Shown: positions 7,004 to 62,517 of the stretch, one piece after another | How positions within the stretch are numbered: position 1 is the stretch's first letter | Layout: every line of letters starts with the position of its first letter | Assembly: GCA_030619905.1 (NCBI GenBank) | Contig: JAUXAO010000002.1 | Location: forward strand, 65,193-129,192 | Reading direction: 5' to 3' | Source: a bacterium | GTDB lineage: Bacteria > Patescibacteriota > Minisyncoccia > Minisyncoccales > CG1-02-41-26 | Length of the DNA stretch: 64,000 nucleotides | Notes under the pieces: generated by a model | Told to the model about the DNA's origin: nothing | What the model saw: the letters and a program-made list of their open reading frames with translations, nothing else | The model's database searches: none | Translations under genes and position numbers: made by a program

Positions 7004-7210
7004 TTATCTTTCTCGGGTCATAGAATTACCACATTTAGGACATTTAACTCCATAACAAGGCACTGCTCTCTTGTGAGGTACTTTTTCTCCACATTGAGGG
7101 CATACACAAAAACCTCCGGGCCCTAAACCAAAACCTCCTGGTTGACGACCTCTACCACGTCCTACTATTGGACCTTGACCGGTTGGACCGGTTCCATTTC
7201 TTCTTGGCAT
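7004..7210 (-). CDS. DUF5320-like protein with a C-terminal zinc ribbon
   Basis: The Gly/Arg-rich N-terminus MPRRNGTGPTGQGPIVGRGRG is typical of DUF5320. Two CxxC pairs follow (CPQCG, CPKCG). Confidence 0.6.
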   Translation of the reverse strand: MPRRNGTGPTGQGPIVGRGRGRQPGGFGLGPGGFCVCPQCGEKVPHKRAVPCYGVKCPKCGNSMTRER

Positions 7211-7261
7211 ATTATTTATTATATATTATTTTTTATAAACTATCGACTTTTCTGTTTTAAG

Positions 7262-10441: not shown

Positions 10442-11266
10442 TTAGCTTGGTCTAAAAACTAAATCTAAAGAAAAATTATATTTATCGCATAAATTTATAA
10501 CTCTTTTCTTTATCTTTTCATAATACTCATTTGTAAGCCATTCTTGACGATAATTTAAAGCTAAATCTGAATAATATTTATCAAGTACTTTTTTAATTTC
10601 TGACCAATTACCACATTTGATGTTTAATCTATCTAAAAGAATTGTTTTAATCCCCACTTCTTTAAAGAGCCTGAATAACTTCTCTAAATCTTTATCGCTT
10701 ATTCCTGGAATAAAGGGCCCAAGGAAAACTAAAGTAGAAATTCCTGCTTTACTCATTTTTTCTAAAGCCAATAAACGACTCTTAACTGAAGAAGCCCTAG
10801 GTTCAAAATTTTTTGCATCTTTTTCATCTAGACAGATAATAGTAAAGCCAGGTTGAGCCCAACGATTAGAGGTATCAAATCTTTTAATAATATCAATATC
10901 TCTTGTTATTAACGGTGATTTAGTCAACAAAGCAATCTGAAAATTATTCTTTGCTAAAACTTCTAAACAACGACGAGTAATTCTATATTTTGCTTCAACT
11001 GGCTGATAAGCATCTGTTACCGAAGAAATCATTACTAAGCCAGGTTTTAAATACTTAACTTGTTTTTCTAAAACCTCAGGAGCATTTATTTTTACATCAA
11101 CAAATTCGCCCCATTTTTCTTTTCCTTTTCTATAACGACACATAAAACGAGCATAACAATAAACACACCCGTGAGAACAGCCTACATAAGGATTGAAATT
11201 ATAGTCAAACCCTTCTATTTTGCAAGGGTTTAAAACTTTTTTGCATTTAATTTCTTTAATTTTCAT
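10442..11266 (-). CDS. radical SAM protein (SPL / photolyase-like radical SAM family)
   Basis: CSHGCVYCYA CxxxCxxC motif near the N-terminus; 274 aa. Confidence 0.75.
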   Translation of the reverse strand: MKIKEIKCKKVLNPCKIEGFDYNFNPYVGCSHGCVYCYARFMCRYRKGKEKWGEFVDVKINAPEVLEKQVKYLKPGLVMISSVTDAYQPVEAKYRITRRCLEVLAKNNFQIALLTKSPLITRDIDIIKRFDTSNRWAQPGFTIICLDEKDAKNFEPRASSVKSRLLALEKMSKAGISTLVFLGPFIPGISDKDLEKLFRLFKEVGIKTILLDRLNIKCGNWSEIKKVLDKYYSDLALNYRQEWLTNEYYEKIKKRVINLCDKYNFSLDLVFRPS

Positions 11267-11273
11267 ATTCTCA

Positions 11274-11302
11274 ATTCTACCAAAAAACCGCCTTCTTGGC
11301 GA
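11274..11302 (-). promoter_or_regulatory. terminator plus extended -10 module (copy D)
   Basis: Minus strand reads TCGCC-AAGAA-GGCG GTTTTTT GG TAGAAT, 7 nt before ATG 11266. TCGCCA sits 17 nt upstream of TAGAAT. Confidence 0.5.
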
Positions 11303-14570: not shown

Positions 14571-15017
14571 CTAAATCTCTTTTCCTTCACGTTCACTATA
14601 AATTATATTGTTTAGAAAAGAATCAATTGCTTGTTTTATATATGGTATTATATTTTGGGGCAAATTATCTAATTCAAACCAACTTAAATCGTCACATTTA
14701 TCGGTTTCCATAATTTTGGGTTTTCCTTGCCATTTTTTAGCTGTAAAGAAAAAGTCTATCCTTTCATCGTCTGGTATCCTTCTGTTCATCGTATGAATTA
14801 GCTCTAAATCTGTTGGGGCTACAACTACATCTATTTCTTCTTTTACTTCTCTTACCATGCCCTGTTTTAATGTTTCATCCTCATCAAGGTGTCCAGCGGG
14901 GAAACTATAGTTACCATCAAAATATCCCGTATTATACCTTCTGGAAAGAAGGATTTTATTGTCTTTTATTAGAACTAAATATACAGAAGCTATTACCTTA
15001 AATCTTTCTTTAGTCAT
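14571..15017 (-). CDS. NUDIX hydrolase
   Basis: NUDIX box GHLDEDETLKQGMVREVKEEIDV. Confidence 0.85.
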   Translation of the reverse strand: MTKERFKVIASVYLVLIKDNKILLSRRYNTGYFDGNYSFPAGHLDEDETLKQGMVREVKEEIDVVVAPTDLELIHTMNRRIPDDERIDFFFTAKKWQGKPKIMETDKCDDLSWFELDNLPQNIIPYIKQAIDSFLNNIIYSEREGKEI

Positions 15018-17633: not shown

Positions 17634-19025
17634 ATGCTTAAATTTTACAATACTCTTTCCCGAAAAAAGGAAGTTTTCAAACCTTTAAAGAATAAAAAAG
17701 TGGGACTCTATACATGCGGCCCAACTGTTTATTGGTTTGCCCATGTTGGCAATTTAAGAACATATATTTTTGAAGATATTTTAAAAAGAGTTTTAGAATA
17801 CAACAAATATAAAGTTAAGCATGTAATGAATATTACTGATGTGGGCCATTTAACTTCTGACGCTGATACTGGCGAGGATAAACTGGAAAAAGGAGCAAAA
17901 AGAGAAAACAAGACTGTCTGGCAGATTGCTGATTTCTACACCAAACATTTTAAAAAGGATTTGAAGAATTTAAATATAAAAGAACCAAGTGTCTGGATAA
18001 AAGCAACAGATACAATAAAAGAACAAATAGATTTAATTAAAATCCTGGAGAAAAAAGGATTTACTTACAAGATCAAGGACGGTGTTTATTTTGACAGTTC
18101 AAAACTCAAAAATTACGGACAGCTCTGGGGAAGTAAAAAAAGAGAAATAAAAGCCGGGGCAAGAGTTAAAATGGTAAAAGGAAAGAAACATCCCACTGAT
18201 TTTGCCTTGTGGAAATTCAGTCCCCAAGAAGTCAAAAGACAAATGGAATGGGATTCTCCTTTTGGAAAAGGATTTCCAGGCTGGCACACCGAATGTGTGG
18301 TAATGGGAGCAAAAGAGTTAGGAATCCCATTTGATATTCATTGCGGAGGCATAGATCATATTCAAATCCACCATACCAATGAAATTGCTCAATCTGAAGC
18401 AGGTTTTAATAAAACATTGGCTCGTTTCTGGCTTCATGGTGAGTTTTTAATCCTAAAAAAAGGAAGAATGGGCAAATCCAAAGGTAATATAGTTATTCTA
18501 GACGATTTAATTAAAAAAGGATTTAATCCCCTTTCCTATCGTTATTTGTGCCTCACAGCCCATTATCGTTCTCAATTAACCTTTTCCCTGGAAAACCTAA
18601 AAGCGGCTCAGAACGGCTTAAAAAAGCTCTCTCAAAGGGTAATAGACCTTAAACAGCAGTCTTCTAAGGTTAAATCTCGAGATATTGGACAAAAAGCAAG
18701 AACCTATAAGAAGAGATTCTTAAATCTTGTAAATGATGACTTAAACATGCCAAAAGCCCTGGCTTTATTCTGGAAAATGCTTGATAATAAAAATCTATTG
18801 GAAAAAGAAAAGTATTCTCTTGTTCTGGATTTTGACAAAGTTTTTGGTTTAAATCTGGATAAAAAGAAAGAAAAAATCCCAAAACAAATCCAGGAATTGG
18901 TTAAAAAAAGACAAGAATACCGAGAGAAAAAACAATGGCAGAGAGCTGATGAAATTAGAAAGAAAGTTGAAAAAATGGGTTATAAGATAAAAGACACCAA
19001 AAAAGGGGCAAAGGTAAGTAAATAA
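17634..19025 (+). CDS. cysS: cysteine--tRNA ligase
   Basis: Class I signature CGPTVY..HVGN, a KMSKS-like RMGKSKGN, and a typical CysRS length. Confidence 0.9.
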   Translation: MLKFYNTLSRKKEVFKPLKNKKVGLYTCGPTVYWFAHVGNLRTYIFEDILKRVLEYNKYKVKHVMNITDVGHLTSDADTGEDKLEKGAKRENKTVWQIADFYTKHFKKDLKNLNIKEPSVWIKATDTIKEQIDLIKILEKKGFTYKIKDGVYFDSSKLKNYGQLWGSKKREIKAGARVKMVKGKKHPTDFALWKFSPQEVKRQMEWDSPFGKGFPGWHTECVVMGAKELGIPFDIHCGGIDHIQIHHTNEIAQSEAGFNKTLARFWLHGEFLILKKGRMGKSKGNIVILDDLIKKGFNPLSYRYLCLTAHYRSQLTFSLENLKAAQNGLKKLSQRVIDLKQQSSKVKSRDIGQKARTYKKRFLNLVNDDLNMPKALALFWKMLDNKNLLEKEKYSLVLDFDKVFGLNLDKKKEKIPKQIQELVKKRQEYREKKQWQRADEIRKKVEKMGYKIKDTKKGAKVSK

Positions 19026-29573: not shown

Positions 29574-29605
29574 TGCTTTTTATATTTTGCTGACCTTTTA
29601 TCTTT

Positions 29606-29635
29606 ATTCTATCAAAAAATCGCCTTCTTGGCGAG
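29606..29635 (-). promoter_or_regulatory. terminator plus extended -10 module (copy E)
   Basis: Minus strand reads CTCGCC-AAGAA-GGCGA TTTTTT GA TAGAAT. The hairpin sequence is the same as in copy D. Confidence 0.5.
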
Positions 29636-29721
29636 GGGAGGCGGATTGCGTATAACGTTTCGGGATAAAAGAAGTTGGGCGAAGCGTAGCGAAGCCGTAT
29701 AGCCCCCGTGTTAAATACAAT

Positions 29722-29733
29722 AAAATGCCCCAC
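29722..29733. repeat. left arm of the perfect 12-bp inverted repeat flanking the cupin gene
   Basis: The plus strand AAAATGCCCCAC is the exact reverse complement of 30213-30224. Confidence 0.7.
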
Positions 29734-58270: not shown

Positions 58271-58422
58271 ATTTTTACTTTTTTATTACTTCTTTAATAC
58301 TTAACTGACCTTTTTAAAAATCTTCCAATTGTTTTATTATACCTAAAACAAGCAAAAAGAAAAATAGAGAAGCGCCTTTAAAGTTTAAAGACGCTTCTTT
58401 TATATCCGAGGGCCGTTGTTTT

Positions 58423-58764
58423 TTAAGACTGGGGAGACGGAGATTTCACTATAGCGAGAATCTGTTTTAAAGCCACAATCAATCCTGCTGCAGCAACAAA
58501 AGCAATAAAGTTATTTAAAATTGACACCACTACTGTTGTTAATTTTCCGAGCTGCATACCGGCAATTCCAATAACAAGTAAAGCAATTACCGCTACCAAG
58601 AAGGGAGTACTTTCCCTTTCTGCAATATTAAGAAAACCAACAATTAAACCAAGAATAAAAAGAAAAATCGGTAAAGATGGAACAGCAGCAAAGCCAGCAC
58701 CAGCCACGACAGCTAATACTATTCCAAGAATCAAGGCCCAACGTCCGATAACCATGGAATCCAT
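58423..58764 (-). CDS. hypothetical membrane protein
   Basis: ORF track. Four hydrophobic segments, and more GC-rich than its neighbours. Confidence 0.5.
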   Translation of the reverse strand: MDSMVIGRWALILGIVLAVVAGAGFAAVPSLPIFLFILGLIVGFLNIAERESTPFLVAVIALLVIGIAGMQLGKLTTVVVSILNNFIAFVAAAGLIVALKQILAIVKSPSPQS

Positions 58765-58960
58765 ACTTTTATTTCTTTTAATATATTATTTATTTGATTC
58801 GACTTTTAATAAGAAAGTGGTTCTATTTTGTTAGATCACCTTCTTGTTGTTATTATTACAATTATATCAGTAAAATTTTTTCTATCAAGTCAATAGCAAA
58901 TAAAATACTCTCTAAAAACTGATTCTCCCTATCGGCATTATATACAAAGGTAATATTTCT

Positions 58961-59983
58961 TCATTTTTCAAGAACCGTTTCTGAATATTTTTTCAAAGCT
59001 TCAAGCGCTAAAGCAGTTGTCAATTCTTCAGAGCCAAAATAAGGACCTGATTCTGTCAGATCTATTCCCCTGCAAAACGCTGCCTTTCTTTTCCAAGAAC
59101 CATCTTTTTGTTGATTTTCTAATAAATTGATAAGGCTTGATTCTATTTCATTCCCTGAATAGTTAAAATTTAAAAGTGTGGTTAAGCCAAAAGCTGTTTC
59201 TAATTCATTGCCAAAAGAGCCGTCTTTATTTTGATGGTTTAAAATATAATTAATAATTTCATCTTTGCTCTTGTCAAAGCAGGTAATATTATTTTCGAAT
59301 GCTCTCGAAACCATATAGAAAAATGATAATTTTCCCAGATAATATACAGAGCAGGACTCATCTGATTTAATTGCCTCATTAATATAAGAACATACAGAGG
59401 GATTATTTTCACCTAAATACAATAAAACATTAGCGTTGACAACGCAATCAACATCATTTCTCTCTTTACCTGAATATAACCAAGTAAAAAATAGATTGTC
59501 ATCATTTACATTTTCCTTTATCAACTGATAGTTATCGTCAATATCTATACCATTAGTCTTCAGAATAAAGGAAATAGTAGATATATCATCCAGGTCAGGT
59601 GATATTTTCTTATCATTTCTAGAAGACCAATATCTCCAAATTCCCCCTTCTTCCTGCTCGTTTAATAAAAAATCTAAAGCTTTTTCAGTCATAATCTCTA
59701 CTTTTTCACCTTCCATATTATTGAAAAAATACAAAACAAAAGTTGTAACAAAAGGAGAACTATCAAAAAGGCATTCTTCTAAATCTTTATCATCGCAAAT
59801 GTATGTTTTAAATTCACCATAATCTAATTGATTCTCATATAAAAAATCTATCCCTTTACTTATAGAATTATTTATTCTTTCTAAGGTTGGAACATTTTCT
59901 AAAGGATTAAAAATATAGATTTTTATTAGTAAAGCAACAATAACTAATAAAAATATTAATACAATTAATAATACTTTTTTCAT
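58961..59983 (-). CDS. exported prenyltransferase/terpene-cyclase-like (alpha-alpha toroid, QW-type repeats) protein
   Basis: N-terminal TM. Repeated Q...DG.F/W motifs (NQLDYGEF, EQEEGGIWRYW, HQNKDGSFG, NQQKDGSWK). Confidence 0.55.
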   Translation of the reverse strand: MKKVLLIVLIFLLVIVALLIKIYIFNPLENVPTLERINNSISKGIDFLYENQLDYGEFKTYICDDKDLEECLFDSSPFVTTFVLYFFNNMEGEKVEIMTEKALDFLLNEQEEGGIWRYWSSRNDKKISPDLDDISTISFILKTNGIDIDDNYQLIKENVNDDNLFFTWLYSGKERNDVDCVVNANVLLYLGENNPSVCSYINEAIKSDESCSVYYLGKLSFFYMVSRAFENNITCFDKSKDEIINYILNHQNKDGSFGNELETAFGLTTLLNFNYSGNEIESSLINLLENQQKDGSWKRKAAFCRGIDLTESGPYFGSEELTTALALEALKKYSETVLEK

Positions 59984-60028
59984 AGAATTGACTTAACAGA
60001 TTTTTATTAATTTTGTGTATATTTTTCT

Positions 60029-60050
60029 ATTCTATCAAAAAACCGCCTCT
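60029..60050 (-). promoter_or_regulatory. U-tract plus extended -10 module (copy F)
   Basis: Minus strand reads CAGAGGCGG TTTTTT GA TAGAAT. It ends the 60037-60279 transcript and precedes the 59983 gene. Confidence 0.45.
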
Positions 60051-60279
60051 GCTAAAAGAAAAAGAGAGAAGAATGTTAGTTTATACAAGCTATAAGAGGT
60101 TAAATAAAATGGAAGCTTGTGTATCCTTCTCTCTTTGAAGTACTGTGTAAGCTTTGCGCTTACAAAGGTTTGCTTATATAAGCAAAGAGGTTAGTTTTTG
60201 CTTATAAGCCGCTCCGCTCTCTTTACGGATAAACCTTGGCAGTTCCTGCCCAGCACGAGGTTTTTTACTTTTAATGTGC
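60037..60279 (-). ncRNA. candidate ~243-nt structured non-coding RNA of unknown class
   Basis: It has a promoter at 60286-60313 and a U-tract at 60037-60042. Hand-found helices are a closing stem CCTC..CTG/CAG.AGG, GGCAG-GAA-CTGCC, GCTTATAAGCAAA/TTTGCTTATA(TA)AGC, TGTAAGC-GCAAA-GCTTACA, and AAAGAGAGAAG.../...CTTCTCTCTTT with an inner ACAAGCT/AGCTTGT. Loops carry an AACCTC motif twice. Confidence 0.5.
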
Positions 60280-60285
60280 ATTTTA

Positions 60286-60313
60286 ATTCTACTAAATATT
60301 ATCTTTTTGTCAA
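60286..60313 (-). promoter_or_regulatory. sigma-70-type promoter
   Basis: Minus strand reads TTGACA (60313-60308), a 16-nt spacer, then TAGAAT (60291-60286). Confidence 0.6.
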
Positions 60314-60430
60314 GAGACTTCATTCAATTTTACTAAATTTCGGCAATTTCAAAGATTTTATTTCTTTCTCTAAATTCCTTAATCAATCTTATTTTTGACT
60401 CAGGAATTTTTAAAATTAGATTTTAAGATA

Positions 60431-61261: not shown

Positions 61262-61303
61262 ATTCTACTAAAAAATCGCCTTTGTTGAAAGTCGAATTGG
61301 CGA
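61262..61303 (-). promoter_or_regulatory. terminator plus -10 module (copy G)
   Basis: Minus strand reads GTCGCC-(loop)-GGCGA TTTTTT AG TAGAAT, after the rarA stop and before the 61232 gene. Confidence 0.45.
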
Positions 61304-62489: not shown

Positions 62490-62517
62490 ATTCTACCAAA
62501 AAACTGCCTATTTTTTG
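62490..62517 (-). promoter_or_regulatory. A/U hairpin plus extended -10 module (copy H)
   Basis: Minus strand reads CAAAAAA-TAGGCAG-TTTTTTG G TAGAAT, directly after stop 62518 and before rarA. Confidence 0.4.

Follow-up and report, generated by a model that had tools for sequence, protein, structure and literature searches.

A candidate small RNA gene built around a four-way junction in uncultured Paceibacteria-type Patescibacteria

The spacer in front of a 340-aa gene in an uncultured member of the Patescibacteria contains a stretch that folds well and is preceded by a promoter sequence. This raises the question whether the locus encodes a structured RNA or a small peptide, serves as a leader of the gene that follows, or is a spacer that folds by accident. 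It lies in a window of 64,000 nucleotides (the whole stretch of DNA that was analyzed), which is AT-rich with a GC content of 32.5%. An earlier note on this DNA had read the locus as a promoter-driven, multi-helix RNA of unknown class. With moderate confidence, we interpret it as a gene for a structured small non-coding RNA, independently transcribed and lineage-restricted, in an uncultured Paceibacteria-type member of the Patescibacteria, and as the representative of a new RNA family. Judged from the sequence, the RNA would be approximately 220–245 nt long, would be transcribed from its own promoter between two genes, and would behave as an orphan bacterial sRNA that founds a new, very narrow family.

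Genomic context and promoter of the RNA

The predicted transcript has a GC content of 0.40–0.43 versus 0.16–0.27 in the flanking spacers, and forms a peak within an AT-rich spacer. The genes upstream of the RNA include MazG and NUDIX; RarA, two genes upstream, shows at most 83% identity to Nealsonbacteria, Gribaldobacteria and Paceibacteria MAGs. On the promoter side of the RNA we identified the 3' remnant of a DUF167/YggU gene (60334..60420, reverse strand), based on the Pfam family DUF167 and on a blastn alignment of positions 1524–1817 of the homologous locus L215 with window positions 60420–60134. Downstream lies the 340-aa gene (58961..59983, reverse strand), which is membrane-anchored and terpene-cyclase/prenyltransferase-like according to weak matches to SQHop_cyclase_C and TIGR01787; it has no functional tie to the RNA.

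The sigma-70-type promoter proposed in the earlier note, TTGACA-16-TAGAAT (60286..60313, reverse strand, read from 60313 to 60286), matches the consensus at 11 of 12 positions and is one of two such sites within the 2.6 kb scanned. Its hexamers are conserved: they are common to the window copy of the RNA (W) and the homologues L296, L215 and L297 (with TAAAAT as the -10 hexamer in L297), L210 carries TTGATA, and the spacer between the hexamers is variable. Tandem -10-like elements (ATTTAGTARAAT) are present at 60282–60297 and 60323–60338 with a spacing of 41 nt, the upstream copy overlapping the old DUF167 stop codon.

Homologues and distribution

Four homologues of the RNA were found in ENA/JGI metagenomes (L296, L215, L210 and L297), which together with the window gives five copies. 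All four are matched by model R1, L210 with 64 bits in a copy cut by the contig end and L297 with 54 bits (E 2.5e-12). L215 and L210 were reached through relatives of the NUDIX gene at 86–95% identity. L296 and L297 were reached through an exhaustive search with a spurious 49-aa ORF, that returned two ORF calls over homologous DNA.

The five copies occur in three gene contexts. W and L296 share the order NUDIX, DUF167 remnant, RNA and 340-aa gene, and their DUF167 remnants carry different deletions. L215 and L210 have the order NUDIX, DUF167 and RNA, with an intact DUF167 gene between NUDIX and the RNA promoter (1386–1610 in L215, 1238–1462 in L210). In L297 the RNA is flanked by a radical-SAM-like gene on one side and by a 29-aa ORF and a LAGLIDADG-like ORF on the other, and this locus otherwise shares nothing with the window. 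Across these contexts the gene downstream of the RNA is the 340-aa gene, DUF5652, or the 29-aa ORF followed by the LAGLIDADG-like ORF. The RNA is independent of any one neighboring gene. The ORF located 3' of the RNA in L297 (1010–1576) is truncated at the contig end, carries a LAGLIDADG-like motif (LIGFICGDGHL) and gave no match in Pfam; a homing-endonuclease-like gene adjoins the remodelled RNA copy of this locus.

A clean 1.7-kb indel separates the window (58406–60134) from L215 (1812–1820) at the 3' edge of the first structural domain of the RNA (domain 1). L215 lacks the second domain, the 340-aa gene and a 113-aa gene, and its domain 1 is joined to the terminator that in the window follows the 113-aa gene (58319–58405). 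The interval from NUDIX/DUF167 to DUF6485 is a hot spot of gene content among relatives.

The RNA is rare: its five copies represent approximately four lineages, all metagenomic, and the ORF-call clusters are singletons. It is absent from the equally close relatives L211–L214, L209 and L298–L300, the last three of which have DUF167 at 85% identity, and is therefore dispensable. No second copy was detected in the 64-kb window or in about 180 related genome and metagenome loci searched. When synteny was followed via RarA, 80 genome loci (RarA at most 83% identical) revealed neither shared flanking genes nor the RNA, and exact look-ups of both flanking window proteins matched no record. Homologues of the 340-aa gene (57–65% identity) are preceded by gaps of approximately 35–205 nt in which nhmmer found no RNA, and none was found in 80 JGI loci with DUF167 relatives. 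BLAST searches of phages and plasmids with the RNA gave no matches. A scan of viral contigs for TAACCTCTT-N-TAACCTCTT returned more than 119 matches, all by chance, and the leader pattern had a single chance match in viral contigs, inside a coding region. Three matches were obtained in a motif scan with GGCAGGAACTGCCAAGG, none of them similar to the RNA, and a 25-mer search of a metagenome collection gave 0 matches.

Predicted structure of the RNA

Compared to dinucleotide shuffles, the window RNA folds with z-scores of -4.46 (60037–60283) and -5.25 (60043–60262). The opposite strand of the locus also folds (z -3.46), so that palindromic stems contribute on both strands. Folds of three homologues gave z-scores of -3.5 to -3.8, and the same closing helix was predicted independently in each. 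Long hairpin stems, as described in the earlier note, are present in the window RNA: a 13-bp stem (GCUUAUAAGCAAA) and a 14-bp stem (AAAGAGAGAAGGAU/AUUCUUCUCUCUUU). The overall layout that had been drawn around them has to be revised. The stem that was thought to pair the 5' and 3' ends of the transcript (CCUC..CUG with CAG.AGG) forms solely in the trimmed window sequence; in place of CCUC, L215 and L297 have CAUC and L210 has UAUU. Instead of a single closed (five-way) junction with multiple hairpins, the folds consist of a leader, a locally closed four-way junction with the helix GUGCUG/CAGYAC in all homologues, and a separate hairpin. All parts described below are on the reverse strand.

The A-rich 5' leader AUGCACAUUAAAAGUAAAAAACCUC (25 nt, 60257..60281) is single-stranded and contains the AUG of a non-conserved ORF; in the folds it is unpaired, or pairs solely with the 3' U-tract. 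There are no differences between W and L296 over 27 positions of this region (25/25 identical within the 25-nt leader), and the promoter and leader through hairpin P2 are 87% identical to L297 over 79 nt, despite the unrelated gene context.

Domain 1 (60140..60256), delineated by model R1 and the folds, is the four-way junction. Its closing helix (60251–60256/60140–60145) is 7 bp in L215 and 8 bp in L297. The other three arms are P2 (60238–60250), a hairpin of 5 bp with a GAR triloop, P3 (60165–60237), which carries P3a (60213–60229) and P3b (60172–60209), and the hairpin P4 (60146–60164). Almost no nucleotides are unpaired at the junction. In L297 the P3 arm has shrunk to a 4-bp hairpin and the loop of P4 is larger, with all four helices kept via double changes; P3a is broken in L215. 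The apical loop of P3b contains an ACCUC core (60187..60191), the single loop motif that is kept in all three copies having the arm (loop sequences CUAACCUCUU in W, UGCACCUCAUU in L296 and UACACCUUCUU in L215). Outside this core, the loops of W and L296 differ at 8 of 10 columns.

Domain 2 (60061..60136), identified from inverted repeats and folds, is formed by P5, a long polypurine/polypyrimidine hairpin comprising the 14-bp stem. The base stem of P5 (60123–60136/60061–60074) is kept in W, L296 and L297, where it is 97% paired and shows one A-U to G-C double change, which is not significant. On top of P5 sits P5a (60085–60120), with a loop that holds a second, non-conserved UAACCUCUU. This arm is missing from L297, which has nevertheless retained P5 and the tail, and is remodelled in L296.

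The earlier note pointed to AACCUC exposed in two loops. Both occurrences exist in the window, in which the two copies of TAACCTCTT on the reverse strand are those in the two loops, and the RNA of approximately 245 nt contains three copies of AACCUC versus 17 on the same strand across 64 kb. L296 has not retained the second loop, and L297 and L215 lack it. The two-loop motif is specific to the window; what persists is the ACCU(C/U) core of a single loop. Within the window, the complement of TAACCTCTT shows no enrichment.

Covariation and divergence

Covariation was counted in five related metagenome sequences (about four lineages), three of which were used to build the model, in an alignment fitted to the structure. 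In domain 1, 95.7% of the cells of the five copies are paired, and six pairs have changed on both sides (two each in P2, P3 and P4) versus 1.7 ± 1.1 in shuffles (0/500); slid-partner controls gave 0–1 such pairs. Covariation among the homologues therefore backs domain 1, whereas P5 does not reach significance. The promoter-driven, multi-helix RNA of the earlier note is upheld in that its helices are kept by compensatory changes.

Between W and L296 alone, two double changes and five wobble-compatible single changes were found. Divergence between these copies amounts to 7.5% in stems, 8% in the tail and 21% at other unpaired positions, and reaches 80% in the apical loop of P3b and 48% in that of P5a; third codon positions of the 340-aa gene differ by 13%. 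The RNA body diverges faster than the neighboring coding DNA (77–83% versus 93% identity). Stems are shielded from change; both apical loops evolve far more rapidly than the near-neutral proxy.

The 3' end and a recurrent promoter module

The sequence offers two candidate 3' ends (60037..60060, reverse strand): a U-rich stretch (UUCUUUU) after P5, and the tail AGCAGAGGCGG-U6. The U6 tract, which had been taken as the end of the transcript, does run into the -10 box of the next gene (TGATAGAAT). It does not represent a canonical terminator: the terminator scan called no hairpin before it, and the U6 belongs to a promoter module that recurs in the window. This module, AGGCGG-TTTTTT-GA-TAGAAT (60029..60048, reverse strand), drives the downstream 340-aa gene. 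The general form AGGCRR-T6-GR-TAGAAT has five copies in the window (11274–11293, 29606–29625, 60029–60048, 61262–61281 and 62490–62509), each upstream of a gene on the reverse strand. The recurrent module looks like a terminator combined with an extended -10 promoter, or like a promoter element that binds a factor and is characteristic of this genome; the GAGGCGG-U6 "terminator" mainly serves the next gene as its standard promoter module. An identical mini-hairpin (TCGCCAAGAAGGCG) precedes the T6 in two module copies (at 11.3 kb and 29.6 kb). The spacer at 29574–29732 has an unusually high GC content (0.43) and contains CCGCCTCCCCTCGCCAAGAAGGCG just before the promoter module; a further structured RNA or 3' UTR may lie here.

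The homologue of the RNA tail in L211 forms the 3' half of a perfect, canonical 10-bp terminator located after NUDIX (ACCGUCUCUA/UAGAGGCGGU-U6). In the RNA-bearing loci, the 5' half of this terminator has become the pyrimidine strand of P5, which leaves a 5-bp alternative helix (UCUCU/AGAGG). As a result, three outcomes are possible: transcription may end at the U-rich run after P5, may end inefficiently at U6, or may read through. In L215, domain 1 is directly followed by a strong canonical terminator. A 17-nt inverted repeat of 88% complementarity connects 59975–59991 with 60026–60042 (UUUUUUGAUAGAAUAGA/UCAAUUCUAUGAAAAAA), that is, the start-codon region of the 340-aa gene with the U6/-10 region. 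It may hide the AUG of this gene in read-through transcripts, or may have arisen by chance in AT-rich DNA.

Comparison with known RNA classes

The assignment to no known class, made in the earlier note, agrees with our Rfam scans, which gave no match at the gathering score and no credible match at E ≤ 10. Using Rfam 15, no family reached the gathering threshold at the locus, and three tRNAs elsewhere were the sole matches in the window. At E ≤ 10 the locus gave chance matches to a miRNA, RAGATH-12 and InvR, all far below threshold, and the homologous sites in L215, L296, L297 and L210 had no matches. SRP RNA and RNase P RNA, looked for through the Rfam scans, were not matched, nor did these scans reveal a CPR-specific regulatory RNA. 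ARAGORN predicted 0 tRNA or tmRNA genes between 59500 and 60800. A full-text literature search on sRNAs of Patescibacteria returned no relevant paper.

The RNA resembles 6S RNA in its length of approximately 200 nt, strong promoter and high degree of structure. 6S RNA is defined by one extended helix that is interrupted by a large bubble in its center and closed by pairing of the 5' and 3' ends. The four folds differ from this, the CCUC/GAGG pairing is not conserved, and the window RNA lacks the rod-like hairpin and central bubble, has no Rfam signal for 6S and is absent from close relatives. A riboswitch or cis-regulatory leader would be expected to keep to one downstream gene family; three different genes follow the RNA, and homologues of the 340-aa gene do not have it. 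We found no signs of a MITE or other mobile element: there is a single copy in the 64 kb searched, and terminal inverted repeats (TIR) and target-site duplications (TSD) are lacking at its ends. Judged on anatomy and context, retrons (no reverse transcriptase nearby), bridge and omega RNAs (no recombinase or TnpB/IscB nearby) and T-boxes were set aside.

RNAs of the RsaE/RoxS type are trans-acting sRNAs of Firmicutes with C-rich loops. Like these, the window RNA is a stand-alone gene with its own promoter, would end in a hairpin with a U-rich run, and presents in a loop a C-rich motif (ACCUC/ACCUU) complementary to purine-rich ribosome-binding sites. It differs from them in its roughly doubled length and its core of a four-way junction, and has no sequence or Rfam similarity to them. 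Moreover, it has only one conserved loop motif, in a host that rarely uses Shine-Dalgarno sequences, and no targets were found among the 72 start regions of the window. CopA and RNAI are antisense copy-control or incompatibility RNAs of plasmids. The window RNA shares with these the conserved stems and fast-diverging apical loops expected if the loops determine specificity, but the opposite strand offers no complementary target transcript, a replicon context is lacking, and the plasmid and phage collections contain no match. Finally, the combined terminator/promoter modules of compact genomes are similar to the 3' tail GAGGCGG-U6-GATAGAAT, the homologue of the L211 terminator plus -10 box. They account for the last ~25 nt only, and not for the promoter, leader, domain 1 or P5.

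Alternative explanations

The earlier note allowed for a 34-codon ORF, and this ORF exists (60177..60281, reverse strand). The transcript could then have a dual function, or be a leaderless mRNA that encodes a small basic peptide (MHIKSKKPRAG...), as the AUG lies 5–7 nt past the -10 box of the RNA promoter, several genes in the window look leaderless, Shine-Dalgarno use is rare, and the ORF is open in four of the five copies and was called by gene callers in two other metagenomes. The reading frame itself speaks against a peptide. In L215 it stops at codon 2 (ATG TAG), and the other complete ORFs have 34, 48 and 27 codons with unrelated C-termini. Over the 16 codons that can be aligned in five copies, the variable columns are distributed 6/6/5 over the three codon positions, without third-position bias, versus 12/6/34 in the adjacent 340-aa gene, and 12 variant codons are non-synonymous or stop versus 4 synonymous. 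The peptide has no match in Pfam or NCBIfam, and a search of 1.84 billion proteins turned up just two further ORF calls lying over homologous DNA, each of them a singleton. A peptide product is accordingly disfavored and, in our estimate, very improbable indeed, though leaderless starts seem common in this genome. Even less credence is due to the idea that a known family (6S, SRP, RNase P, tmRNA, Y-like or riboswitch) is represented here by a member too divergent for the Rfam models. RNAs of Patescibacteria are often divergent, and the size and strong promoter would suit a housekeeping RNA. Nevertheless, no family appears consistently at E ≤ 10 in the window or the four homologues, ARAGORN finds nothing, the architecture of leader, four-way junction and hairpin fits none of those named, and the lack of the RNA in close relatives is incompatible with an essential RNA.

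We consider it unlikely, though less far-fetched, that the locus is a non-functional, fast-evolving spacer in a rearrangement hot spot, derived from a decayed gene or terminator or from a mobile, hairpin-rich element, with hairpins that are DNA-level palindromes or historical accidents. This would be in line with the presence or absence of the RNA among close relatives and the variable gene content between NUDIX/DUF167 and DUF6485, the adjoining DUF167 pseudogene remnant, the clean 1.7-kb indel exactly at the 3' edge of domain 1, the folding of both strands with long near-perfect stems, and the faster divergence of the RNA body than of coding DNA. It would leave unexplained that compensatory and wobble-compatible changes keep the helices while loops change 5–10 times faster than stems, and that promoter hexamers and leader are kept across unrelated contexts; the lack of a second copy in the window and in the ~180 related loci searched, and of terminal inverted repeats or target-site duplications, also speaks against a mobile element. 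Clearly unlikely as well is a cis-acting 5' leader or attenuator, a long 5' UTR in which UCUCU joins either P5 or a terminator-like helix with AGAGG-CGG-U6 and so controls read-through. In its favor, W, L296 and L297 lack a strong terminator ahead of the next gene, a U-to-C change in the UCUCU of L296 is matched by A-to-G in both possible partners, and the 17-nt inverted repeat ties the U6/-10 region to the start codon of the 340-aa gene. Against attenuation, the downstream gene differs by context, domain 1 ends at a strong terminator in L215, homologues of the 340-aa gene elsewhere lack such a leader, the downstream gene has its own copy of the standard promoter module of the genome, and the alternative helix measures 5 bp versus 14 bp for P5.

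Proposed mode of action and translation signals in the window

For the favored reading as a small RNA gene, transcription would start at the TTGACA/TAGAAT promoter and produce the A-rich single-stranded leader of 25 nt first, then the compact four-way junction and then the long P5 hairpin. Its 3' end would fall within the U-rich run that follows P5, or at U6, and the GAGGCGG-U6 tail would at the same time be the standard promoter module for the downstream gene. The sRNA probably acts in trans, and we infer its mechanism only. As a trans-acting riboregulator, it would contact its targets through the conserved leader and/or the C-rich ACCU(C/U) loop of P3b, a loop with the potential to base-pair with purine-rich sequences of Shine-Dalgarno type. 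Stability and termination would come from the junction and P5, and the fast-changing apical loops would either tune specificity or lack constraint.

Pairing of the loops with Shine-Dalgarno sequences had been suggested in the earlier note. The core of the P3b loop that could take part is kept; target prediction in the window stays at background: the duplexes of leader and loops with 72 start regions are no better than those of shuffled controls. GGAG or GAGG occurs at -22 to -4 in 8 of the 72 mapped genes (background 6.8%), so an anti-Shine-Dalgarno mechanism could touch few genes, and we regard this idea as weak.

A more far-reaching, and highly unlikely, variant is a "programmable" scaffold, in which an invariant leader and a covarying frame of four-way junction and P5 present two apical loops that are swapped wholesale between close relatives. 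If this were true, the loops would be specificity determinants for changing nucleic-acid targets (phage, mobile element or host-cell RNA), and the RNA would constitute a guide-like or kissing-loop class of CPR bacteria; no known protein partner is encoded nearby. Only its hypervariable loops could raise the RNA above the rank of an orphan sRNA. Its narrow distribution and dispensability limit its impact; covariation-supported RNAs of CPR bacteria are scarce, however, and an RNA with its own promoter and a compact four-way junction backed by covariation would be a concrete candidate for the study of riboregulation in tiny, host-dependent genomes, in which Shine-Dalgarno sequences seem to be few and leaderless mRNAs numerous.

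In the window, the genes at 10442–11266, 14571–15017 and 17634–19025 have a -10 box only 6–7 nt before the ATG, and such genes are probably expressed from leaderless mRNAs. A Gly/Arg-rich ORF of 68 aa was observed at 7005–7211 (reverse strand), inside a 348-nt gap of the crude gene map. It contains two Cys-x2-Cys motifs (MPRRNGTGPTGQG...CPQCG...CPKCG) and probably encodes a real small zinc-ribbon protein.
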